Made by a program: the position numbers and the translations under genes. From NCBI RefSeq assembly GCF_050920415.1, contig NZ_CP169309.1: a stretch of 64,000 bases of DNA; one strand, written 5' to 3'. Source of the stretch: Escherichia coli (GTDB taxonomy: Bacteria > Pseudomonadota > Gammaproteobacteria > Enterobacterales > Enterobacteriaceae). The notes below the pieces were generated by a model. That model saw only the letters and a program-made list of their open reading frames with translations, was not told the DNA's origin and searched no databases. Shown in pieces: positions 1,086 through 56,723 of the stretch. Each line of letters begins with the position of its first letter. Position 1 is the first letter of the stretch.

Positions 1086-3761
1086 ATGGCTGTTACTAAT
1101 GTCGCTGAACTTAACGCACTCGTAGAGCGTGTAAAAAAAGCCCAGCGTGAATATGCCAGTTTCACTCAAGAGCAAGTAGACAAAATCTTCCGCGCCGCCG
1201 CTCTGGCTGCTGCAGATGCTCGAATCCCACTCGCGAAAATGGCCGTTGCCGAATCCGGCATGGGTATCGTCGAAGATAAAGTGATCAAAAACCACTTTGC
1301 TTCTGAATATATCTACAACGCCTATAAAGATGAAAAAACCTGTGGTGTTCTGTCTGAAGACGACACTTTTGGTACCATCACTATCGCTGAACCAATCGGT
1401 ATTATTTGCGGTATCGTTCCGACTACTAACCCGACTTCAACGGCTATCTTCAAATCGCTGATCAGCTTGAAGACCCGTAACGCCATTATCTTCTCCCCGC
1501 ACCCGCGTGCTAAAGATGCAACCAACAAAGCTGCAGATATTGTTCTGCAGGCTGCTATCGCTGCTGGTGCGCCGAAAGACCTGATTGGCTGGATCGATCA
1601 ACCTTCTGTTGAACTGTCTAACGCGCTGATGCACCACCCAGACATCAACCTGATCCTCGCGACCGGTGGTCCGGGTATGGTTAAAGCCGCATACAGCTCC
1701 GGTAAACCAGCTATCGGCGTAGGCGCGGGTAACACTCCAGTCGTTATCGATGAAACTGCTGATATCAAACGTGCAGTTGCATCTGTACTGATGTCTAAAA
1801 CCTTCGACAACGGCGTAATCTGTGCTTCTGAACAATCTGTTGTTGTAGTTGACTCTGTTTATGACGCGGTACGTGAGCGTTTCGCTACCCACGGCGGTTA
1901 CATACTGCAGGGCAAAGAGCTGAAAGCAGTTCAGGATGTTATCCTGAAAAACGGTGCGCTGAACGCGGCTATCGTTGGTCAGCCAGCCTATAAAATTGCT
2001 GAACTGGCAGGCTTCTCTGTACCAGAAAACACCAAGATTCTGATCGGTGAAGTGACCGTTGTTGATGAAAGCGAACCGTTCGCACATGAAAAACTGTCCC
2101 CAACTCTGGCAATGTACCGCGCTAAAGATTTCGAAGACGCGGTAGAAAAAGCAGAGAAACTGGTTGCTATGGGCGGCATCGGTCATACCTCTTGCCTGTA
2201 CACTGACCAGGATAACCAACCGGCTCGCGTTGCCTACTTCGGTCAGAAAATGAAAACGGCCCGTATTCTGATCAACACCCCGGCGTCTCAGGGTGGTATC
2301 GGTGACCTGTATAACTTCAAACTCGCACCTTCCCTGACTCTGGGTTGTGGTTCCTGGGGTGGTAACTCCATCTCTGAAAACGTTGGTCCGAAACACCTGA
2401 TCAACAAGAAAACCGTTGCTAAGCGAGCTGAAAACATGTTGTGGCACAAACTTCCGAAATCTATCTACTTCCGCCGTGGCTCTCTGCCAATCGCGCTGGA
2501 TGAAGTGATTACTGATGGCCACAAACGTGCGCTCATCGTGACTGACCGCTTCCTGTTCAACAATGGTTATGCTGATCAGATCACTTCCGTACTGAAAGCA
2601 GCAGGCGTTGAAACTGAAGTCTTCTTCGAAGTAGAAGCTGACCCGACCCTGAGCATCGTTCGTAAAGGTGCAGAACTGGCAAACTCCTTCAAACCAGACG
2701 TGATTATCGCGCTGGGTGGTGGTTCCCCGATGGATGCCGCGAAGATCATGTGGGTCATGTACGAACATCCGGAAACTCACTTCGAAGAACTGGCGCTGCG
2801 CTTTATGGATATCCGTAAACGTATCTACAAGTTCCCGAAAATGGGCGTGAAAGCGAAAATGATCGCTGTCACCACCACTTCTGGTACAGGTTCTGAAGTC
2901 ACTCCGTTTGCGGTTGTAACTGACGACGCTACTGGTCAGAAATATCCGCTGGCAGACTATGCGCTGACCCCGGATATGGCGATTGTCGATGCCAACCTGG
3001 TTATGGACATGCCGAAGTCCCTGTGTGCTTTCGGTGGTCTGGACGCAGTAACTCACGCCATGGAAGCTTATGTTTCTGTACTGGCATCTGAGTTCTCTGA
3101 TGGTCAGGCTCTGCAGGCACTGAAACTGCTGAAAGAATATCTGCCAGCGTCCTACCACGAAGGATCTAAAAATCCGGTAGCGCGTGAACGTGTTCACAGT
3201 GCAGCAACTATCGCGGGTATCGCGTTTGCGAACGCCTTCCTGGGTGTATGTCACTCAATGGCGCACAAACTGGGTTCCCAGTTCCATATTCCGCACGGTC
3301 TGGCAAACGCCCTGCTGATTTGTAACGTTATTCGCTACAACGCGAATGACAACCCGACCAAGCAGACTGCATTCAGCCAGTATGACCGTCCGCAGGCTCG
3401 CCGTCGTTATGCTGAAATTGCTGACCACCTGGGTCTGAGCGCACCGGGCGACCGTACTGCTGCTAAGATCGAGAAACTGCTGGCATGGCTGGAAACGCTG
3501 AAAGCTGAACTGGGTATTCCGAAATCTATCCGTGAAGCTGGCGTTCAGGAAGCAGACTTCCTGGCGAATGTGGATAAACTGTCTGAAGATGCATTCGATG
3601 ACCAGTGCACCGGCGCTAACCCGCGTTACCCACTGATCTCCGAGCTGAAACAGATTCTGCTGGATACCTACTACGGTCGTGATTATGTAGAAGGTGAAAC
3701 TGCAGCGAAAAAAGAAGCCGCTCCGGCTAAAGCTGAGAAAAAAGCGAAGAAATCCGCTTAA
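1086..3761 (+). CDS. adhE: Bifunctional acetaldehyde-CoA/alcohol dehydrogenase AdhE
   Basis: 891-aa [29 protein letters not shown]...; N-terminal aldehyde dehydrogenase domain and C-terminal iron-containing ADH domain ([10 protein letters not shown]). Confidence 0.97.
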
Positions 3762-3785
3762 TAAGTAGCGCTGTCTGGCAACATA

Positions 3786-3813
3786 AACGGTCCCTTCTGG
3801 GGCCGTTTTTTTG
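3786..3813 (+). terminator. Rho-independent terminator downstream of adhE
   Basis: 9-bp stem AACGGTCCC / GGGGCCGTT with TTCT loop, followed by a T-run (3806-3812). Confidence 0.7.
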
Positions 3814-4063
3814 TTTTACCCAAAGCAACTTTCCCATAAACCGACAGCATTTGCCTTCATCATATTTACGGCGATGTATAACGCCTACACACAGCGATAT
3901 TGTACTTTACAGGTCACAAGTCAACGTCACTGTAAAAGCGATCTGTGAGGGGTATAGTGGCGTTAAAGAACTGTCGAGAAGGGTATATACACCGGATGAA
4001 GTGCGTAAAATGAACTGACAGGATAAAAGCGCCCTGCTCACCCTGTCAGTAAAGAAATTCTTA

Positions 4064-4681
4064 TTAATCGTGGCGATGCCTTTCCTGAATAGCCGTTAAT
4101 GAGCCGACTTCTAACGCCTCTTTATAGTGTTTGCGGCATACAGAAACGTAGCGTTCATTACCACCAATAACCACCTGCTCACCTTCGTTATAAGGTCTGC
4201 CTGCTTGATCAAGACGCAGCACCATGCTTGCTTTACGGCCACAAAAACAGATGGTTTTTAATTCAACCAGTTTGTCGGACCATGCCAGTAAGTATTGGCT
4301 GCCAATAAATAATTCACCTCGAAAATCGGTACGTAAACCATAACAAAGTACGGGTATATCGAGTTGATCTACAACCTCCGATAATTCATATACTTGTTGT
4401 CTGGTTAAAAACTGGCATTCATCAACCAGTACGCAATGAATTGCCTGCTGTTCATGTTCCGCACGAATCTCATCAAATAATGATGAATTTTGGTTAAATA
4501 ATTTTGCAGGCGATGACAAACCTATACGCGAGCTGACTTTCCCGGCACCAAAGCGATCATCAATTTCTGCCGTATATACGACAGTGCGCATGCCGCGTTC
4601 CTGGTAATTGTATGAAGATTGCAACAATGCTGTAGACTTACCCGCATTCATTGCGGAATAGTAGAAATATAGCTGTGCCAT
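4064..4681 (-). CDS. tdk: Thymidine kinase
   Basis: 205-aa [33 protein letters not shown]...; P-loop, Tdk family. Confidence 0.95.
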
Positions 4682-5213
4682 CAGCCACAGGCCCTCAATG
4701 ATATGAAATAAAGTTGGCTGGAGTTTATCATAATTCGTCAGTTTTTCAGCTCAACAGTATGCATAGAAGTGGTATATGCGTTCTCCCTTACGAAGCCTTG
4801 CATAATCCTTCTGAGCTATCATTACAACTGCCTCGCTTGTTATAAGCGGGTAAATGACTGCTGGTAACTATTCACAATCTTTAACCTGTTGCGCAAGTAA
4901 TAGCCCTCTGTTGACCTCCTGGAGATAGTGCAATACTAAGTCCCTGCTCTTATTGCGACTGTTCTACTTTTCATCATTCGCTTAATAGAGAATTCTCGTA
5001 AACACGACTAATACAGAAGACTGAAAGGTCGTCAGCCTACGATAATCTCCCCATAAAATGTGACATGAATCAGGAAGTTTTAACCTCACGTGCTGCGAAA
5101 TCATCGGCGCAAATAGGGCTATATGCCGCGTCTTTTCTGGCTAATTTTATGAAAAGATATTTATTGGCGGCACAAAATAAAGAACAATTTTGAATTCCTT
5201 ACATTCCTGGCTA

Positions 5214-5242
5214 TTGCACAACTGAATTTAAGGCTCTATTAT
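5214..5242 (+). promoter_or_regulatory. Candidate sigma70 promoter of hns (-35 TTGCAC 5214-5219, -10 TATTAT 5237-5242, 17-bp spacer)
   Basis: Hexamers with correct spacing about 45 bp upstream of the hns ATG; sits in the long AT-rich tdk-hns divergent region. Confidence 0.5.
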
Positions 5243-5284
5243 TACCTCAACAAACCACCCCAATATAAGTTTGAGATTACTACA

Positions 5285-5698
5285 ATGAGCGAAGCACTTA
5301 AAATTCTGAACAACATCCGTACTCTTCGTGCGCAGGCAAGAGAATGTACACTTGAAACGCTGGAAGAAATGCTGGAAAAATTAGAAGTTGTTGTTAACGA
5401 ACGTCGCGAAGAAGAAAGCGCGGCTGCTGCTGAAGTTGAAGAGCGCACTCGTAAACTGCAACAATATCGCGAAATGCTGATCGCTGACGGTATTGACCCG
5501 AACGAACTGCTGAATAGCCTTGCTGCCGTTAAATCTGGCACCAAAGCTAAACGCGCTCAGCGTCCGGCAAAATACAGCTACGTTGACGAAAACGGCGAAA
5601 CTAAAACCTGGACTGGCCAGGGTCGTACTCCAGCTGTAATCAAAAAAGCAATGGATGAGCAAGGCAAATCCCTCGACGATTTCCTGATCAAGCAATAA
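5285..5698 (+). CDS. hns: Nucleoid-associated protein H-NS
   Basis: 137-aa [47 protein letters not shown]...[10 protein letters not shown]; recognised H-NS sequence. Confidence 0.97.
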
Positions 5699-5722
5699 TC
5701 TTTTGTAGATTACACTTGCTTA

Positions 5723-5749
5723 AAATCCCGCCATCGGCGGGATTTTTTA
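5723..5749 (+). terminator. Rho-independent terminator after hns
   Basis: AAATCCCGCC-ATCG-GGCGGGATTT perfect stem with A-run upstream and T-run downstream (possibly bidirectional). Confidence 0.75.
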
Positions 5750-5784
5750 TTGTCCGGTTTAAGACAATTTAATAAGAATAAGCT

Positions 5785-5818
5785 ATAAAAAAACGGCGTC
5801 GATTGCTCAACGCCGTTT
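5785..5818 (-). terminator. Rho-independent terminator after galU
   Basis: AACGGCG...CGCCGTT inverted repeat preceded on the plus strand by an A-run (T-run on the minus strand), about 25 nt past the galU stop. Confidence 0.6.
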
Positions 5819-5841
5819 CGTGGATAACACCGATACGGAAG

Positions 5842-6750
5842 TTACTTCTTAATGCCCATCTCTTCTTCAAGCCAGGCTTTAAATTCCGTGCCAAGGGTGT
5901 TATGACGAATACCGTATTCAACGAAGGCCTGCATGTAACCTAATTTATTACCGCAGTCATGGCTCTTCCCTTTCATATGATAGGCTTCCACCGTTTCTTT
6001 TTCGATCAGCATATCAATTGCGTCGGTGAGCTGAATTTCATCACCAGCACCCGGAGGGGTTTTTGCCAGCAACGGCCAAATATCCGCGCTAAGAACGTAA
6101 CGACCCACAATAGCGAGATTAGACGGCGCAACATCCGCTTTTGGTTTTTCAACCACGCCAACCATCGGTACGCTTTCACCCGGCGCTAATTCAACGCCTT
6201 TGCAATCCACAACGCCATATGCGGTCACATCAGCAACCGGTTCAACCATGATCTGGCTATGACCCGTTTCATCAAAGCGGCGGATCATCTCTGCCAGGTT
6301 ATCCTGTGACAAATCGGATTCATATTCATCCAGAATAACGTCAGGCAAAATAACAGCCACAGGTTCATCACCCACTACCGGGTGAGCACACAATACCGCG
6401 TGTCCCAGGCCTTTCGCCAGCCCCTGACGAACTTGCATAATAGTCACGTGCGGCGGACAAATAGACTGCACTTCATCAAGCAGTTGACGTTTTACACGTT
6501 TTTCCAGCATTGCTTCCAGTTCAAAACTGGTATCAAAGTGGTTTTCAATAGAGTTTTTAGATGAGTGAGTAACCAGCACAATTTCAGTAATGCCAGCCGC
6601 AATACATTCATTCACGACGTATTGAATTAATGGCTTATCGACAAGTGGCAGCATCTCTTTCGGGATGGCTTTCGTCGCCGGCAACATCCTGGTTCCTAAT
6701 CCCGCAACGGGGATAACGGCTTTTTTGACTTTCGTATTAATGGCAGCCAT
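5842..6750 (-). CDS. galU: UTP--glucose-1-phosphate uridylyltransferase
   Basis: 302-aa [38 protein letters not shown]...; nucleotidyltransferase G-x-G-T-R motif. Confidence 0.95.
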
Positions 6751-10585: not shown

Positions 10586-10670
<85 letters not shown>

Positions 10671-10704
10671 TCTCAAGCATTACATCAAAATTTGAATTAT
10701 CCCT

Positions 10705-10770
<66 letters not shown>

Positions 10771-10789
<19 letters not shown>

Positions 10790-11506
10790 TCACTTTCAAA
10801 AGTTCCTGAAATCCCCAACAAATCCACAATTAAATATTCTGCCCATGCGGGGAAGGATGAGAAGCTTCGACTAAGGTTCGACTCGAGCGCCAGCGAGAGA
10901 GCGTTGCCGCAGGCAACGACCCGTAGGGCGAAGCGCGCAGCGCTGAGTAATCCTTCCCCCACCACCATCACTTTCAAAAACCCCTGTATTCTCCAACGAA
11001 TCCGTAACTGAATATTCTGCCCATGCGGGGAAGGATGAGAAGCTTCGACTAAGGTTCGACTCGAGCGCCAGCGAGAGAGCGTTGCCGCAGGCAACGACCC
11101 GTAGGGCGAAGCGCGCAGCGCTGAGTAATCCTTCCCCCACCACCATCACTTTCAAAAACCCCTGTATTCTCCAACGAATCCGTAACTGAATATTCTGCCC
11201 ATGCGGGGAAGGATGAGAAGCTTCGACTAAGGTTCGACTCGAGCGCCAGCGAGAGAGCGTTGCCGCAGGCAACGACCCGTAGGGCGAAGCGCGCAGCGCT
11301 GAGTAATCCTTCCCCCACCACCATCACTTTCAAAAACCCCTGTATTCTCCAACGAATCCGTAACTGAATATTCTGCCCATGCGGGGAAGGATGAGAAGCT
11401 TTGACTAAGGTTCGACTCGAGCGCCAGCGAGAGAGCATTGCCGCAGGCAACGACCCGTAGGGCGAAGCGCGCAGCGCTGAGTAATCCTTCCCCCACCACC
11501 ATCACA
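10771..11506 (+). repeat. tyrT-operon 178-bp tandem repeats (4 full units starting at 10771, 10949, 11127, 11305, plus a 24-bp partial); rtT RNA/tpr region
   Basis: Each unit starts with the tRNA 3' motif AATCCTTCCCCCACCACCATCAC; exact 178-bp period read from the sequence; copies near-identical apart from the first unit and two substitutions in the fourth. Confidence 0.9.
11391..11480 (+). pseudogene. tpr: tpr (protamine-like peptide) frame interrupted by TAA at codon 6
   Basis: ATG AGA AGC TTT GAC TAA... encodes MRSFD-stop; the same TAA is present in all four repeat copies. Read-through would give the Arg-rich 29-aa peptide I recall for K-12 tpr (from memory). Confidence 0.35.
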
Positions 11507-18481: not shown

Positions 18482-18724
18482 TTAGGATAATTAACAGTTA
18501 CATCATAAAATACTGTAAATTAAGGCATTTTATACCTGTAGTTATTTAAACTATTAAGAATTTTATGCAGATGGGTATTAAGGAGTATTCCCCATGGGTA
18601 ACATATTAATGGCTCTTAATGAAATCCGGCGAAATAAGCCATATAACATTAGTATGTTGTAACTAAATGATGCATAAAAAAAGCGCGACATCATGCCGCG
18701 CAAAGGATAATCAAATATTAAGAT

Positions 18725-27614: not shown

Positions 27615-27681
27615 GAGAAAACCCCCGCACGTTGAGAGGTAAAACCTGACAACAGAACGGGGGCTAATCTTGAACCATCAA
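27615..27681 (-). ncRNA. rdl: Rdl-type antisense RNA (antitoxin), copy 1, approximate ends
   Basis: Minus-strand sequence ...AGATTAGCCCCCGTTCTGTTGTCAGGTTTTACCTCTCAACGTGCGGGGGTTTTCTC matches the Rdl RNA as I remember it; ends in its own hairpin plus U-run. Confidence 0.5.
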
Positions 27682-27729
27682 CAATTCAAGAATAGCCGCA
27701 AAATGTTGTCATTACAACAAGGCGGCTAT

Positions 27730-27837
27730 ATGACGCTCGCGCAGTTTGCCATGATTTTCTGGCACGACCTAGCGGCACCGATCCTGGCGGGGATTATTAC
27801 CGCAGTGATTGTCAGCTGGTGGCGTAACCGGAAGTAA
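27730..27837 (+). CDS. ldr: Ldr-family type I toxin peptide (35 aa)
   Basis: ATG...TAA encodes MTLAQFAMIFWHDLAAPILAGIITAVIVSWWRNRK, a single-TM peptide ending WWRNRK; near-identical to LdrA/B/C. Confidence 0.85.
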   Translation: MTLAQFAMIFWHDLAAPILAGIITAVIVSWWRNRK

Positions 27838-27885
27838 GGTGAAAACGGGCGTCAGGCTGCCGTGATGGCAATATGCGCCCGAAAC

Positions 27886-27919
27886 CGGCCGCAGGGGTAA
27901 CAGCCTGCGGCCCTTTTTG
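27886..27919 (+). terminator. Rho-independent terminator of ldr copy 1
   Basis: GGCCGCAGG-GGTAACAG-CCTGCGGCC stem-loop followed by TTTTT. Confidence 0.75.
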
Positions 27920-28150
27920 TCTTTATCTCTTCTGCAAGTAAATATTGGCAACCCGAGCTGGAAGCATCATCCAGAGCACTCATGAAACGACTGTAACAGC
28001 TGTTGAAAAACCGGAATGCACTCTTCATTGCAAACATTTCAGGGATGAAGTGAAGATGAATTGAGACGTAGTATCCACACCAAGCCGGAGTTATCCGGTG
28101 AGGCGCAATGTTGCGGGGGCTCTATCCCTGGTGGCATTGGTTGCTGGAAA

Positions 28151-28217
28151 GAGAAAACCCCCGCACGTTGAGAGGTACAACCTGACAACAGAACGGGGGC
28201 TAATCTTGAAACCAGAC
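28151..28217 (-). ncRNA. rdl: Rdl-type antisense RNA (antitoxin), copy 2
   Basis: Minus strand reads GTCTGGTTTCAAGATTAGCCCCCGTTCTGTTGTCAGGTTGTACCTCTCAACGTGCGGGGGTTTTCTC, with terminal hairpin and U-run. Confidence 0.55.
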
Positions 28218-28264
28218 ACTTCAAGAATAGCCGCAAAATGTTGTCATTACAACAAGGCGGCTAT

Positions 28265-28372
28265 ATGACGCTCGCGCAGTTTGCCATGACTTTCTGGCAC
28301 GACCTGGCAGCACCGATCCTGGCGGGAATTATTACCGCAGCGATTGTCAGCTGGTGGCGTAACCGGAAGTAA
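28265..28372 (+). CDS. ldr: Ldr-family type I toxin peptide (35 aa), copy 2
   Basis: Encodes MTLAQFAMTFWHDLAAPILAGIITAAIVSWWRNRK; differs from copy 1 at two residues (I9T, V26A). Confidence 0.85.
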   Translation: MTLAQFAMTFWHDLAAPILAGIITAAIVSWWRNRK

Positions 28373-50240: not shown

Positions 50241-51938
50241 ATGAAAGCCACCGCCCCTCCTCGCCCGCAAAAAATAGCGTTAATTCCCGCCTGCGTTTTG
50301 TTGTGTTTCGCTGCGCTAGCGGTGCAGGCAGAAGAAACGCCAGTAACGCCACAGCCGCCTGATATTTTGTTAGGGCCGCTGTTTAACGATGTGCAAAACG
50401 CCAAACTTTTTCCGGACCAAAAGACCTTTGCTGATGCCGTGCCGAACAGCGATCCGCTAATGATCCTTGCAGATTATCGAATGCAGCAAAACCAGAGCGG
50501 CTTTGATCTGCGCCATTTCGTTAACGTCAATTTCACTCTGCCGAAAGAGGGAGAGAAATATGTTCCGCCAGAAGGGCAGTCGCTGCGCGAACATATTGAC
50601 GGACTTTGGCCTGTATTAACGCGTTCTACCGAAAACACCGAAAAATGGGATTCTCTGTTACCGCTGCCGGAACCTTATGTCGTGCCGGGCGGACGTTTTC
50701 GCGAGGTATATTACTGGGACAGTTACTTCACCATGTTAGGGCTTGCCGAAAGCGGTCACTGGGATAAAGTCGCGGATATGGTGGCCAATTTTGCTCATGA
50801 AATAGACACTTACGGGCATATTCCCAACGGCAACCGCAGTTACTATTTAAGCCGCTCGCAACCGCCATTCTTTGCCCTGATGGTAGAGTTACTGGCGCAG
50901 CATGAAGGCGATGCCGCGTTGAAGCAATACCTGCCGCAAATGCAAAAAGAATATGCTTACTGGATGGACGGTGTTGAAAACCTGCAAGCCGGACAACAGG
51001 AAAAACGCGTTGTAAAACTTCAGGATGGTACCCTTCTCAACCGCTACTGGGACGATCGCGATACGCCACGACCAGAGTCATGGGTGGAAGATATTGCCAC
51101 CGCCAAAAGCAACCCGAACCGGCCTGCCACTGAAATTTACCGCGACCTGCGCTCTGCCGCTGCGTCTGGCTGGGATTTCAGCTCGCGCTGGATGGACAAT
51201 CCGCAGCAGTTAAATACCTTACGCACCACCAGCATCGTACCGGTCGATCTGAACAGCCTGATGTTCAAAATGGAAAAAATCCTCGCCCGCGCCAGCAAAG
51301 CTGCCGGAGATAACGCGATGGCAAACCAGTACGAAACGCTGGCGAATGCCCGTCAAAAAGGGATCGAAAAATATCTGTGGAACGATCAACAAGGCTGGTA
51401 TGCCGATTACGATCTGAAAAGTCATAAAGTGCGCAATCAGTTAACCGCTGCCGCCCTGTTCCCGCTGTACGTCAATGCGGCAGCGAAAGATCGCGCCAAC
51501 AAAATGGCGACGGCGACGAAAACACATCTGCTGCAACCAGGCGGCCTGAACACCACGTCGGTGAAAAGTGGGCAACAATGGGATGCGCCAAACGGCTGGG
51601 CACCGTTGCAGTGGGTCGCGACAGAAGGATTACAAAACTACGGGCAAAAAGAGGTGGCGATGGACATTAGCTGGCACTTCCTTACCAATGTTCAGCACAC
51701 CTATGACCGGGAGAAAAAGCTGGTGGAAAAATATGATGTCAGCACCACCGGAACAGGGGGCGGCGGTGGCGAATATCCATTACAGGATGGCTTTGGCTGG
51801 ACCAATGGCGTGACGCTGAAAATGCTGGATTTGATCTGCCCGAAAGAGCAACCGTGTGACAATGTTCCGGCGACGCGTCCACTCAGTGAATCAACAACAC
51901 AGCCGCTAAAACAAAAAGAGGCGGAACCTACGCCTTAA
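50241..51938 (+). CDS. treA: Periplasmic trehalase
   Basis: 565 aa from ATG 50241 ([32 protein letters not shown]...); AAGGAGA SD 7 nt upstream; signal peptide; termini differ from the K-12 sequence I recall. Confidence 0.94.
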
Positions 51939-52070
51939 CTTTACTGTATATCGAGCAATGCCATTACGTGCATAAAATTGGCATTGCTCTTTCTTCATCA
52001 CGAAATACCACTCTTTCTACAGTCTATGCCTTTATTTTCTTTTATTAGGGAAGATTTTAATTTTATTTTA

Positions 52071-52090
52071 TCAACTTATTAATCATTACA
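52071..52090 (+). promoter_or_regulatory. Candidate Fur-box-like site (CTTATTAATCATTAC)
   Basis: Partial match to the GATAATGATAATCATTATC Fur consensus in the AT-rich region upstream of the uptake operon; judged by eye only. Confidence 0.25.
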
Positions 52091-52216
52091 CCTCTATTTA
52101 TATTTTTCCCCACTCCCCATTCTCCCTGACAATTTTCTTGTGGAACAAAGTGTTATTTAAGAAACAAGCAAATCATTCTGTCTCTTTAGACAAATTTTGA
52201 CATCAAACATGATCTT

Positions 52217-52250
52217 TTTCGCTATATATGTAAGTATATATCGGTTTTAA
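52217..52250 (+). promoter_or_regulatory. Candidate sigma70 promoter for the uptake operon (-35 TTGACA 52217-52222; A/T-rich -10 region about 52241-52249)
   Basis: Consensus TTGACA hexamer about 50 bp upstream of the ATG at 52268, followed at 17-19 bp by CTATAT/TATATG; CAGGA SD before the ATG. Confidence 0.4.
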
Positions 52251-52267
52251 TTATCAGGATATTACTT

Positions 52268-53290
52268 ATGTCACTAACCAGACGGAGGTTTACACAGATT
52301 CTTGCGTCGACATTGTTCCTGCATCATCTGCCGTCCTTTGCACAATCAGTCAAATTCTGGGCCTCACTGACGCTTCCCGAAGCCCAAAACATTACACGCA
52401 TCGTCAGCGCAGGCGCGCCCGCCGATTTACTATTGCTGGCTGTCGCGCCAGAAAAAATGGTCGGTTTTTCCTCTTTTGATTTTGCCCGTCAGGCATTAAT
52501 TCCATTGCCAGAGCACATTCGCCAGTTCCCCAGGCTGGGACGACTCGCCGGGCGCGCCAGCACACTCTCGCTGGAAGGGCTTATGGCATTACATCCCGAT
52601 TTGGTCGTTGATTGCGGCAATACGGATGAAACCTGGATCTCCCAGGCACGGCAGGTTAGCGAACAGACACAAATACCCTGGTTATTGCTTAACGGGAAAC
52701 TGGAACAATCAGCAGAACAGTTAACAACGCTTGGCAAAACGTTAGGCGAAGAGCACCGCGCCGCAGAACAAGCCAATCTCGCCAGCCGCTTCGTTGGTGA
52801 AGCTAAGGCATTCGCCACCTCACCCGCCGCTAACCTCAGCTTTTATGCTGCGCGCGGTCCTCGAGGGCTGGAAACGGGCTTACAGGGTTCGTTGCATACC
52901 GAGGCGGCGGAATTATTAGGTTTGCACAACGTCGCGCAAATAGCCGATCGCCACGGTCTGACACAGGTTTCCATGGAAAATCTCCTGCGCTGGCAGCCGG
53001 ATATTATTCTGGTTCAGGAGGCCGTTACTGCAGATTTTATTCGTCGTGATCCTCTCTGGCAGGGCGTGAAAGCGGTTGCGGAACAACGCATCTTATTTTT
53101 AAGTGGCCTGCCCTTTGGCTGGCTGGGTGCCCCGCCGGGAATCAACCGTCTTCTGGGATTACGCAGACTTCACGCCTGGCTGGATCCCGCCATCAATCGC
53201 CAGTTTAAAAGTGACATGCAGCATTACGCCCAACTGTTCTGGCATTGCCCATTAAGTGACGCTGACTATCAAAAATTGGTGGCGAGCTAA
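52268..53290 (+). CDS. Periplasmic substrate-binding protein (FecB/BtuF-like) with twin-arginine-type signal peptide
   Basis: 340-aa ORF MSLTRRRFTQILASTLFLHHLPSFAQS...; RRRF motif then hydrophobic region and AxA-like cleavage site; first gene of a coupled operon. Confidence 0.8.
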   Translation: MSLTRRRFTQILASTLFLHHLPSFAQSVKFWASLTLPEAQNITRIVSAGAPADLLLLAVAPEKMVGFSSFDFARQALIPLPEHIRQFPRLGRLAGRASTLSLEGLMALHPDLVVDCGNTDETWISQARQVSEQTQIPWLLLNGKLEQSAEQLTTLGKTLGEEHRAAEQANLASRFVGEAKAFATSPAANLSFYAARGPRGLETGLQGSLHTEAAELLGLHNVAQIADRHGLTQVSMENLLRWQPDIILVQEAVTADFIRRDPLWQGVKAVAEQRILFLSGLPFGWLGAPPGINRLLGLRRLHAWLDPAINRQFKSDMQHYAQLFWHCPLSDADYQKLVAS

Positions 53291-54270
53291 TGAGAACCGT
53301 AAACGGATGTATTTTGCTGCTGGCAGCTATCAGTATCACTTTTGCCGCCGTAAGTGGGGCTTATCATCTCGATATACAGCAACTGCTGGCGCTCATTCTG
53401 CGTCAAGAAAATGTTCCTGTGCAGGAACAAATTGTCTTCTGGCAAATCCGCGTGCCGCGTATTCTTGCTGCGCTGTTTCTGGGCGCGGCGCTGGCAGGGG
53501 CCGGAACCACCTATCAGGGAATGTTCCGTAATCCCTTAGTGTCACCGGATATTTTAGGCGTCTCCGCCGGTGCCGGACTTGGTGCCTGCGCGGCAATCCT
53601 GTGGGGATTATCCATTGTTTACATCCAGCTGTACGCATTTTGCGGCGGGCTGATGGTGGTCGCGGGCGTCTGGTTGATTACGCGTCGGGTGACCCGCCAC
53701 GATCCGATCTTAACCCTGGTGCTGGTAGGCATTGCGTTAGGAACGTTGTGCGGAGCGGGGATATCGCTAATAAAAACGCTGGCCGATCCTTACACCCAGT
53801 TACCGTCAATTACCTTCTGGTTGCTGGGGGGGCTGTCCACCGTGACCTTACGCGATCTCTGCTATGCTGCACCGATCATTCTCATAGGCTCCTTGCCCCT
53901 GTTTTTTCTCCGCTGGCGCATGAATTTACTCACGCTTTCCGACGACGAAGCCCATTCGCTGGGACTGAACGTGACACGTCTGCGCTTTGGATTGATTGTC
54001 TGCGCCACACTCATCACCGCCAGCACGGTAGCAATAGCGGGCATAATTGGTTGGGTCGGCCTGGTCGTTCCGCACATTGCCCGCTTGTTGACCGGTCATA
54101 ACCATCAGCAGCTATTGCCCATGGCAATGTGTACTGGCGCGATTCTGCTCCTGCTTACCGATACGCTGGCACGCAGCATTGGAACAACAGAAATCCCACT
54201 TGGCATTCTGACCGCTTTTGTTGGTGCACCGTTTTTCCTGTTTTTGTTGTTACGCGGAGGTCGCCAGTGA
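53290..54270 (+). CDS. ABC transporter permease (FecCD family)
   Basis: 326-aa polytopic ORF; start overlaps the upstream stop (TAATG); FecCD-like segment SPDILGVSAGAGLGA. Confidence 0.85.
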   Translation: MRTVNGCILLLAAISITFAAVSGAYHLDIQQLLALILRQENVPVQEQIVFWQIRVPRILAALFLGAALAGAGTTYQGMFRNPLVSPDILGVSAGAGLGACAAILWGLSIVYIQLYAFCGGLMVVAGVWLITRRVTRHDPILTLVLVGIALGTLCGAGISLIKTLADPYTQLPSITFWLLGGLSTVTLRDLCYAAPIILIGSLPLFFLRWRMNLLTLSDDEAHSLGLNVTRLRFGLIVCATLITASTVAIAGIIGWVGLVVPHIARLLTGHNHQQLLPMAMCTGAILLLLTDTLARSIGTTEIPLGILTAFVGAPFFLFLLLRGGRQ

Positions 54271-55025
54271 CTTTGCTTGCCGTCCGTCATGCGTCTCTGG
54301 GTTACTCCCGCCATCCGATGCTACGCGACGTGTCCTTCACCCTGTCGCAAGGAACAATTTGTTGTCTGTTAGGAGCCAATGGTTGCGGCAAAACCACACT
54401 CATGCGCTCCATTCTTGGCGTTATACCGTTATTAAAAGGCGAGATCTTACTGGATAGCCTCCCTGTGCAGACACTCAGCCATCGCCAGCGCGCGCAGGCT
54501 ATTGCCTGGGTGCCGCAGGCGCACGACGGCATTTTTGCTTTTAGTGTGCTGGATATGGTGTTGATGGGCCTGGCCCCCACCATAGGCGCTTTTTCCGTTC
54601 CCGGTAAGCAAGAACGCCTGAAAGCAACGGAGCAACTGGAAAAGCTGGGCATTTTGCATCTGGCGACACGACGCTGGAATACACTTAGCGGCGGTGAACG
54701 TCAGCTGGCTTTAATCGCCCGTGCACTCGTCCAGCAACCGCGCTTGTTATTACTGGATGAGCCTGCCTCCAGCCTCGATTTCGGTCATCAGATCCAACTA
54801 CTGGACACGCTGGCGCAGCTCAAAAATAACGGCATGACAATGCTAATGTCGACTCATCATCCGCTCCATGCCAACGCCATTGCCGACAGCATTATCCAGG
54901 TAGAGCCAGATGGACGAGTAACACAAGGCTTACCGACCGAACAGTTAACAACGAACAAACTGGCTGCCCTGTATCGGGTTTCTGCCGACCAGATTCATCA
55001 TCACCTCTCTGCAATTAGCCACTAA
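54267..55025 (+). CDS. ABC transporter ATP-binding protein (FecE-like)
   Basis: GTG start overlapping the permease stop (GTGA); Walker A GANGCGKTT, signature LSGGERQ, Walker B LLLLDEPASSLD; the track ORF extends upstream in the same frame. Confidence 0.85.
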   Translation: MTLLAVRHASLGYSRHPMLRDVSFTLSQGTICCLLGANGCGKTTLMRSILGVIPLLKGEILLDSLPVQTLSHRQRAQAIAWVPQAHDGIFAFSVLDMVLMGLAPTIGAFSVPGKQERLKATEQLEKLGILHLATRRWNTLSGGERQLALIARALVQQPRLLLLDEPASSLDFGHQIQLLDTLAQLKNNGMTMLMSTHHPLHANAIADSIIQVEPDGRVTQGLPTEQLTTNKLAALYRVSADQIHHHLSAISH

Positions 55026-55034
55026 GGAACAATC

Positions 55035-55847
55035 ATGCTCATTGATGATATTGATTTTGCGGACCTTTACCTGCAGCAACTCAAGCTGGCCCACCGCACA
55101 GAAAAAACGCCGGATCACTGGGATCAACGGGCGGAAAAAATGGCGGAAAATTGCGCCTCGCCTACGGACAGCTACCTGCAACAACTGACCGCTAAAATTG
55201 ATCTGCAAGGCGCGCAGACCTTATTCGATATGGGCTGCGGACCGGGTACCGTATCGCTGGCGCTGGCTGACAAACTCACGACGATTTATGGCATTGATTA
55301 CAGTCAGGGGATGCTGAAGGTTGCCGCCCGTCGCGCCGCCGCGCTAAAGGCAGACAATGTCCACTGGATCCAGCGCGCATGGGAAGAGGACTGGAGTGAC
55401 CTGCCACGCTGCGATATTGCCGTGGCTTCCCGCTCCACTCTGGTGGCTGATATGCGCCAGGCAATGAGCAAACTGAATAATCAGGCACGGCTTCGCGTCT
55501 ATACGACTCATCTGGTCAGCACCTCGTTCGTCTCTCCAGCCATTCAGCGGGCGGCTGGTCGGGAAGTGATCGAATTACCCAACTATATCTTTGCGCTCAA
55601 CGTCCTGTATCAGATGGGAATTTATGCTCACGTTGATTTTATCCGCGGACAAAATTGCCCACAGGATAACAGCACCTGGGAACGTTTTGAGCAGAACGTC
55701 AGCTGGAGTCTGGGCGCGCTTAACGACGATGAGCGTGAGCGGTTATATCGCTGGTATCAACAACAAGATGCTCGTGCCCTCGCCCCTGCCAGCCGCGACT
55801 GGGCGCTCATCTGGTGGGATAGCGTACCGCAAGAGGCACTGCGATGA
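55035..55847 (+). CDS. Class I SAM-dependent methyltransferase
   Basis: 270-aa ORF with SAM-binding motif I (LFDMGCGPGTVSLALA) and acidic motif II (IYGIDYS); AAGGA SD upstream. Confidence 0.75.
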   Translation: MLIDDIDFADLYLQQLKLAHRTEKTPDHWDQRAEKMAENCASPTDSYLQQLTAKIDLQGAQTLFDMGCGPGTVSLALADKLTTIYGIDYSQGMLKVAARRAAALKADNVHWIQRAWEEDWSDLPRCDIAVASRSTLVADMRQAMSKLNNQARLRVYTTHLVSTSFVSPAIQRAAGREVIELPNYIFALNVLYQMGIYAHVDFIRGQNCPQDNSTWERFEQNVSWSLGALNDDERERLYRWYQQQDARALAPASRDWALIWWDSVPQEALR

Positions 55848-56698
55848 TTTTCCTTTCTCAGGCACAAATCGATGCGTTACTGCTGGAAGATATCCAGGGC
55901 GGTGACCTGACCACGCGAGCATTAAATATTGGACACCAGCATGGCTATATAGAGTTTTTTCTCCGTCAGGGCGGCTGCGTCAGCGGCATTTCTGTCGCGT
56001 GTAAGATGTTAACTACGCTGGGATTAACTATTGATGACGCGGTCAGCGACGGTTCACAAGCGAACGCGGGTCAGCGGCTAATCCGTGCGCAAGGTAATGC
56101 CGCAGCACTTCATCAGGGATGGAAGGCAGTCCAGAATGTGCTGGAGTGGAGTTGCGGTGTTTCTGATTATCTCGCTCAAATGCTGGCGTTACTTCGTGAA
56201 CGTTACCCTGATGGCAATATCGCCTGCACCCGAAAAGCAATTCCGGGTACCCGCTTACTGGCCTCGCAGGCAATTCTGGCTGCCGGAGGACTGATTCATC
56301 GTGCCGGATGTGCGGAAACCATATTATTGTTTGCCAACCACCGCCATTTTCTTCATGACAATCAGGACTGGTCAGGCGCAATCAATCAGTTACGTCGCCA
56401 CGCACCCGAGAAGAAAATAGTTGTTGAAGCCGACACGCCGAAAGAGGCAATCGCCGCGTTACGCGCGCAACCAGACGTACTTCAGCTCGACAAATTTAGT
56501 CCGCAACAGGCAACTGAAATTGCGCAAATAGCACCGTCGCTGGCTCCCCACTGCACGCTGGCTCTGACCGGCGGAATTAATCTGACAACACTCAAAAATT
56601 ACCTCGACTGCGGCATTCGCCTTTTTATTACCTCCACGCCTTACTACGCGGCACCTGCTGACATTAAAGTCAGTCTGCAACCCGCAGCCTCTATTTAA
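55844..56698 (+). CDS. ModD-family protein (quinolinate/nicotinate-nucleotide pyrophosphorylase fold)
   Basis: 284-aa ORF MIFLSQAQIDALLLEDIQGGDLTTRAL... with TRKAIPGTR motif typical of the NadC/ModD family; ATG overlaps the methyltransferase stop (ATGA). Confidence 0.7.
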   Translation: MIFLSQAQIDALLLEDIQGGDLTTRALNIGHQHGYIEFFLRQGGCVSGISVACKMLTTLGLTIDDAVSDGSQANAGQRLIRAQGNAAALHQGWKAVQNVLEWSCGVSDYLAQMLALLRERYPDGNIACTRKAIPGTRLLASQAILAAGGLIHRAGCAETILLFANHRHFLHDNQDWSGAINQLRRHAPEKKIVVEADTPKEAIAALRAQPDVLQLDKFSPQQATEIAQIAPSLAPHCTLALTGGINLTTLKNYLDCGIRLFITSTPYYAAPADIKVSLQPAASI

Positions 56699-56723
56699 TT
56701 CTTTGTTAAACGGAATTTATTCT

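Follow-up and report, generated by a model that had tools for sequence, protein, structure and literature searches.

The 64,000-nucleotide stretch of DNA analysed here (the window), which covers the E. coli chromosome from ychE to cvrA, carries, with a probability that we put at about 90%, the ancestral and never-occupied allele of an insertion hotspot for IS4-family elements at the adhE terminator. By this account, no IS lies between tdk and adhE in this strain because the adhE terminator hairpin was never hit. The hotspot would be the rho-independent terminator of adhE itself, which is composed of an A-run, a GC-rich 10-bp stem, a TTCT loop and a T-run, and IS4-subgroup transposases would pick such sites, duplicating 10-13 bp upon insertion. 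Genomes of the K-12 type would have received ISZ, now a 989-bp deletion derivative; those of the CFT073 type would have received IS4 in one orientation, which has since suffered an internal deletion and a frameshift; and those of the 23CRST026 / ST648 type would carry the full 1426-bp IS4 in the other orientation. The strain under study would have escaped all of these insertions, keeping the native strong adhE terminator and a 302-bp spacer. The evidence documented below covers the identity of the site and its target duplications, how often each state occurs in the population, the state of an outgroup, and the target profile of IS4.

The genes around the site were located as open reading frames and by the annotation of a near-identical genome, MFDS1022581 (NZ_CP169399.1, 2842425-2906424), which differs from the window by only 5 SNPs over 64,000 positions. 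The layout is as follows.

1086-3761, plus strand: adhE coding sequence, 891 aa, with 2 aa differences from K-12 (open reading frame and annotation in the near-identical genome)
3762-4063: adhE-tdk spacer between convergent genes, 302 bp, no IS-derived sequence (open reading frames and alignment)
4064-4681, minus strand: tdk coding sequence, 205 aa, with 2 aa differences from K-12 (open reading frame and annotation)
4682-5284: hns-tdk divergent intergenic region, 603 bp, GC 39.8%
5285-5698, plus strand: hns coding sequence, 137 aa, protein identical to that of K-12 (open reading frame and annotation)
5842-6750, minus strand: galU

An earlier note on this DNA, which had placed an IS-derived pseudogene, insZ, between tdk and adhE in K-12, gave the same two gaps, and its coordinates for them (3762-4063 for tdk-adhE and 4682-5284 for hns-tdk) match this layout exactly. 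The statement on K-12 is borne out by the MG1655 annotation, in which an 'insertion sequence:ISZ' (1294426-1295405) with the IS4-family pseudogene insZ (b4573) lies between tdk and adhE; the element is absent from the window. The pairwise alignment with K-12 proposed in that note was run, and K-12 does not share the gap of about 300 bp, since tdk and adhE are 1301 bp apart in MG1655 versus 302 bp in the window. The statement that the gap lacks a transposase-like ORF likewise holds, as the 302 bp contain three short ORFs of 44-55 aa only.

The note had also taken the missing insZ, together with divergent TreA termini, as the mark of a non-K-12 lineage. The window is indeed non-K-12, with a divergence of about 2.2%: adhE coding DNA is 97.8% identical to that of K-12, and the adhE-purU stretch is 97.6-97.9% identical. 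The TreA observation is accurate as well. The protein encoded at 50241-51938 differs from its K-12 counterpart at 17 residues, all of them at 3-27, in the signal-peptide region, and at 548-562, in the C-terminal tail. Absence of insZ alone, by contrast, is not diagnostic of lineage, because the site is empty in 2,201 of 5,426 complete genomes (41%), O157:H7 included.

The 302-bp spacer contains the features listed here.

3785-3812, plus strand: adhE intrinsic terminator, predicted, intact (terminator scan and RNA fold), with stem AAACGGTCCC at 3785-3794, loop TTCT at 3795-3798, stem GGGGCCGTTT at 3799-3808 and a T-run to 3812
3792-3802: unoccupied IS4-family target core, single copy (BLAST break points, junction sequences and position weight matrix, PWM)
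4007-4049, minus strand: putative tdk terminator, its presumed function based on an inverted repeat read from the sequence and a partial terminator-like scan match, with the repeat CTGACAGG at 4015-4022 and CCTGTCAG at 4042-4049, then TTCATTTT on the minus strand

The predicted adhE terminator begins 24 nt past the adhE stop codon and consists of a 10-bp stem, a 4-nt loop and 7 T; its RNA folds at -18.8 kcal/mol (z = -4.3 versus shuffles). The segment 3785-3812 thus shows the hallmarks of a rho-independent terminator, namely a GC-rich stem-loop followed immediately by a U-run close to a stop codon, and we infer that the hairpin at 3785-3808 terminates adhE transcription. At the adhE-side junction of ISZ in K-12, only a weak hairpin is predicted (z = -0.05, no U-run), and a bulged hairpin with a U-run is rebuilt at the far end of ISZ. 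Formation of the adhE 3' end would accordingly be expected, from these folding predictions, to differ between the window and K-12 alleles. The same 27-nt terminator (AAACGGCCCCTTCTGGGGCCGTTTTTT) was also found in an Aeromonadaceae metagenome-assembled contig (L011, 1401-1427), downstream of a gene for an FKBP-type peptidyl-prolyl isomerase, apparently a case of a simple GC hairpin (TTCT loop) being used convergently.

When aligned by BLAST, the window gap is colinear with the non-IS flanks of K-12, CFT073, 23CRST026 and O157. The K-12 alignment breaks at window positions 3792-3801, and the 10-bp sequence CCCTTCTGGG aligns to both sides of ISZ, with K-12 holding two copies (a target-site duplication) and the window one. 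The K-12 junctions, with the break point marked by a slash, read AAACGGCCCCTTCTGGG/CAATGCCGATCAGTTAAGG and GAACGGCATTG/CCCTTCTGGGGCCGTATTTTTT. To judge from these junction sequences, K-12 ISZ is an element with IS4-type ends inside a 10-bp target duplication. The window and K-12 share the chromosomal locus, and the K-12 element sits exactly at window 3792-3801, duplicating a sequence that is single here; the window differs in carrying no trace of ISZ. The IS4-family terminal inverted repeat was sought in the form (T/C)AATGCC(G/A)(A/G)TCAGTTAAGG, and a search of the whole window for the IS4-type terminal repeat AATGCCGATCAGTTAAGG with up to 3 mismatches gave 0 matches. No DDE transposase ORF or remnant was found in the tdk-adhE gap, and none is annotated there in the near-identical genome. 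A flanking target duplication of 10-13 bp is absent from the site in the window, where CCCTTCTGGG(G) has a single copy at 3792-3802; only occupied genomes have it in duplicate.

ISZ is a remnant of 989 bp that lacks about 409 bp of a 1433-bp relative on plasmid pUSDA5905_2, to which it is 92% identical. The transposase of this full-length relative (446 aa) is only 39% identical to IS4 InsG, and for that reason we regard ISZ and IS4 as different elements; their DNA similarity is confined to the terminal roughly 40 bp. The pUSDA5905_2 relative is likewise inserted in a GC hairpin, CCCGCTTCGCGGG.

The same nucleotides are occupied in other E. coli genomes. All insertions compared (K-12, CFT073 and 23CRST026) start at window position 3792, and the site in O157:H7 is empty. 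The 1155-bp insertion of CFT073 has an annotated, frameshifted IS4-family transposase, and in the 1437-bp insertion of 23CRST026 the transposase gene of IS4 is intact. In 23CRST026 the element is a complete IS4 of 1426 bp, flanked by an 11-bp duplication, CCCTTCTGGGG, and located on a flank haplotype that is 98.6-99.6% identical to the empty window. The CFT073 element, here termed IS4-delta, is 97.6% identical to the IS4 of 23CRST026, inverted relative to it, shorter by about 270 bp and flanked by a 12-bp duplication. The comparison indicates that the adhE hairpin has been hit by at least two different IS4-subgroup elements, and the insertions are probably three separate events, with the independence of the two IS4 insertions resting on orientation, duplication length and a divergence of 2.4%.

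It could be argued that the shared insertion point and the IS4-type ends common to all of these elements go back to a single ancient insertion that later diverged, inverted and decayed, with no recurrent hotspot, and the junctions of CFT073 give some encouragement to this idea in showing evidence of end conversion or inversion. We consider it highly improbable. Outside the terminal 40 bp or so, no nucleotide similarity between ISZ and IS4 was detected, the transposase of the full-length ISZ relative is only 39% identical to InsG, the duplications differ in length (10, 11 and 12 bp), the intact full IS4 sits on flanks 98.6-99.6% identical to the empty window, and independent IS4 sites elsewhere show the same type of target. 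Recurrent insertion at the adhE terminator remains the preferred reading of the occupied alleles.

The CFT073 junctions themselves lie at about 770-812 and 1925-1965 of the CFT073 locus (L004), corresponding to window 3791-3802. Read in reverse complement, the junction on the adhE side, CCCCAGAAGGGG/TAATGCCAGTCAG, matches the one on the tdk side, CTGACTGGCATTA/CCCCTTCTGGGG, exactly. In one of the two copies of the target duplication the loop is inverted (TTCT to AGAA), and the tip of the inverted repeat there bears the sequence variant of the other end. This looks like conversion or template switching between inverted ends across a palindromic target.

We assessed the state of the site in 5,426 complete E. 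coli genomes, with the following classes.

Site empty: 2,201 genomes (about 41%), by uninterrupted match of a 200-bp probe across the site
ISZ-occupied: about 1,992 genomes, by presence of at least 80% of ISZ
Full IS4 with the 23CRST026-type junction: 190 genomes, an ST648 strain among them, by junction probe
IS4-delta, CFT073-type: about 1,031 genomes, by subtraction and not by direct measurement

The last figure was derived from a CFT073-type junction probe that reached 80% coverage in 3,023 genomes, ISZ genomes included, from which the ISZ class was subtracted; the probe also catches ISZ genomes, the two ends being similar over about their first 43 bp. The four classes total about 5,414. 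The empty site is the commonest single state, and the occupied alleles together make up about 59% of genomes.

With occupied alleles in the majority, and with flanking direct repeats of 10-12 bp that could allow rare precise deletion, the empty state might be derived, a former ISZ or IS4 having been lost by precise excision, for example through recombination between the copies of the target duplication. The window itself argues against such a history, as it has a single target copy, a perfect terminator and no excision footprint, for example an additional partial copy of CCCTTCTGGG. Species-representative genomes were scanned for the exact pattern, and in Escherichia whittamii (adhE region 93% identical) the hairpin follows adhE directly and without interruption; this outgroup evidence comes from one species, in which the locus ends just past the hairpin and leaves the tdk side outside it. 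The only other return of the intact-hairpin scan was the unrelated Aeromonadaceae contig. Furthermore, the spacer of O157, which is empty, is 98.9% identical to that of K-12. O157 is empty on the K-12 spacer haplotype, and it would therefore follow that ISZ entered a haplotype that already existed. Given the empty outgroup, the O157 haplotype and the lack of a footprint, the empty state appears to be ancestral and not the product of excision, which we regard as very unlikely.

A collapsed or skipped IS repeat in the assembly is almost certainly not the explanation. IS elements commonly break assemblies, and nothing more specific speaks for an artefact here. One perfect terminator runs across the junction without a break, the complete genome with 5 SNPs over the 64 kb is identical there, and 2,201 complete genomes share the uninterrupted site.

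Right of the IS site, the adhE-tdk spacer (3802-4063) is hypervariable, with about 90% identity to K-12, O157 and CFT073 and 95.5% to 23CRST026; the flanking genes and the hns-tdk region, against this more divergent spacer, are 97.8-98.9% identical.

IS4 classically inserts in terminator- or attenuator-like palindromes, and its target consensus is reportedly AAA-N20-TTT in the work of Mayaux et al. 1984 and Klaer et al. The IS4 site of K-12 itself has this form (AAA-N20-TTT, with a 12-bp duplication). The adhE terminator resembles these insG targets in having AAA, 18-20 nt of GC-rich palindrome and TTT; it differs in that the target is unoccupied in the window. We compiled a target profile from an exact scan of metagenome contigs for IS4 ends, which gave 83 loci with 46 distinct flanks, of which 40 were left once near-duplicates and adhE-like sites had been removed. 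In these 40 independent flanks, GC-rich and often hairpin-forming sequence comes after an A-run located at -20 to -17 relative to the junction. The IS4 subgroup is described as making 10-13 bp duplications and having -AATR- ends, with 'spectacular apparent insertion specificity' in some members (PMC2266710). Little of direct relevance was found in the literature on insZ/adhE/tdk and on IS4 target specificity.

A two-sided PWM built from the 40 flanks was scanned over about 64,000 window positions (mean -19.7, sd 8.3). The sites that ranked highest are given below, along with the predicted feature at the first of them.

Rank 1, score 26.7: hns terminator, 5728-5740
Rank 2, score 26.1, about 5.5 sd above the window mean: adhE terminator
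Rank 3, score 19.3: next best site
5722-5752, plus strand: hns intrinsic terminator, AAAATCCCGCC ATC GGCGGGATTTT followed by a T-run (terminator scan)

The IS4 profile explains the adhE terminator being hit. Occupation of the hns terminator by IS4, predicted from its top score, was found in 0 of 5,426 genomes when chimeric junction queries were used in both orientations. The hns-galU interval is interrupted in about 125 genomes by other things, for example by ISEc23 in strain ZYB62. Because the top PWM site was never IS4-occupied in the 5,426 genomes, either the profile is insufficient to predict use or there is selection against insertions beside hns.

We entertained a joint reading in which the occupancy state marks major lineages, occupancy removes the adhE terminator and alters read-through between adhE and tdk, and selection keeps the hns terminator free; this combination is unlikely to hold as a whole. 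If it did, the functional wild type would be the allele without an insertion, and K-12 would represent an altered state with respect to adhE 3'-end formation. In substance the finding is already known, as ISZ is a K-12 annotation and the target selectivity of IS4 is classical. For the window it matters little: the region is normal, intact core genome of E. coli, and what sets it apart from K-12 is a peculiarity annotated in K-12. It does serve as a reminder that the K-12 reference has the derived state here, with the intact adhE terminator present in about 41% of complete E. coli genomes. The locus is, moreover, a clean natural example of the preference of IS4-family elements for terminator hairpins; its four alleles, three occupied and one empty, could be used as a simple marker of lineage, and as a test bed for the effect of an IS in a terminator on convergent genes.

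The hns-tdk region, which the earlier note had described as 600 bp of AT-rich DNA consistent with H-NS autoregulation, is 603 bp long versus 604 bp in K-12 and 98.7% identical to it, with 7 substitutions and 1 indel, none of them less than 175 bp upstream of the hns ATG. It is AT-rich compared to genes, as its GC content of 39.8% stands against 51.9% for the annotated features, but not compared to other intergenic DNA: intergenic regions of 100 bp or more, 26 in the window, have a pooled GC content of 40.7%, and several of them are considerably more AT-rich (for example, GC 30.1%, 33.8% and 34.9%). With a GC content close to the intergenic average, the AT-richness offers no specific support for autoregulation. 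The motif TCGATAAATT, which we take to be the high-affinity H-NS motif, had no match with up to 2 mismatches in 4682-5284, and across the window it occurred at the level of chance (67 observed versus 65 expected).

The K-12 hns control region, which is regulated by H-NS, FIS, CspA and (p)ppGpp, closely matches that of the window in length (604 versus 603 bp) and in sequence (98.7% identity), and nothing distinctive was seen here. The hns promoter has been studied with upstream DNA to -313, in work that cites autoregulation and FIS activation and in which (p)ppGpp control of hns is a K-12 result (PMC7601328). Because hns-tdk is 98.7% identical to that of K-12, autoregulation probably transfers to this strain, and FIS activation and (p)ppGpp control probably apply as well. 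From its sequence, this neighbour of the adhE-tdk locus is a standard E. coli hns control region, essentially as in K-12. Laboratory-evolved K-12 lines have acquired repeated IS insertions in the hns-tdk region, for example at -111 from hns (PMC4166923); unlike those lines, the window has no IS upstream of hns. The best promoter candidate that a consensus scan placed there is the following.

5215-5242, plus strand: best sigma-70-like match upstream of hns (TGCACA, 16-nt spacer, TATTAT), which would give a leader of about 35 nt

Across 3700-5850 the same type of scan returned 6 promoter-like sites versus 4.4 expected, which is not enriched over shuffles, so the match at 5215-5242 is a lead by position only. 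No Rfam family was found in the tdk-adhE gap or in hns-tdk, and an E-value scan of 3600-5900 returned four sub-threshold edge hits. At the gathering threshold, the only Rfam matches in the whole window were two tRNA-Tyr, four RtT and two rdlD.

The earlier note had extended its reading to the whole 64 kb, which it considered free of mobile elements. No IS was found anywhere in the window, although the absence of insZ by itself would not imply this. Across the window span, PGAP annotated no transposase, integrase or phage gene in the near-identical genome. The three thirds of the window matched 111, 33 and 61 of 72,556 plasmid records, and in every case the match lay in genes of chromosomal type or in a mislabelled chromosome; a common IS would have given matches in the thousands. 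An IS hidden at the end of the window (63449-64000) was considered, as K-12 has a partial IS1414 nearby, and was rejected; the segment is nearly strain-specific but has no annotated mobile gene. It is at least 99% identical in 1 of 5,426 genomes, and about 705 match it at roughly 83%. K-12 annotates the partial IS1414 at the point corresponding to the stretch downstream of cvrA. In the 61655-64000 stretch, the cvrA ORF is complete (578 aa, 5 of them different from K-12), although PGAP flags the gene as a truncated pseudogene in the near-identical genome.

Several other differences from K-12 were noted along the window. A 6.7-kb accessory iron-uptake island lies between treA and ymgE (51940-58670), in the position that about 620 bp with ycgY take up in K-12. 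Its genes are for an iron ABC transporter, a SAM-dependent methyltransferase, ModD and a TonB-dependent receptor, and none for mobility is annotated. The narK-narG intergenic region is 392 bp long in the window versus 515 bp in K-12, and at 18719-18724 the window lacks 127 bp of K-12 sequence (1279350-1279476) within narS, an annotated sRNA derived from the 3' end of narK. Repeats that differ from K-12 in copy number were located in two segments.

10586-11501 and 27616-28372: repeat copy-number differences from K-12 (RtT; ldr/rdl)

Four tandem RtT units follow tyrT/tyrV, with spacing unlike that of K-12, and the window has two ldr/rdl toxin-antitoxin modules versus three (ldrABC) in K-12.
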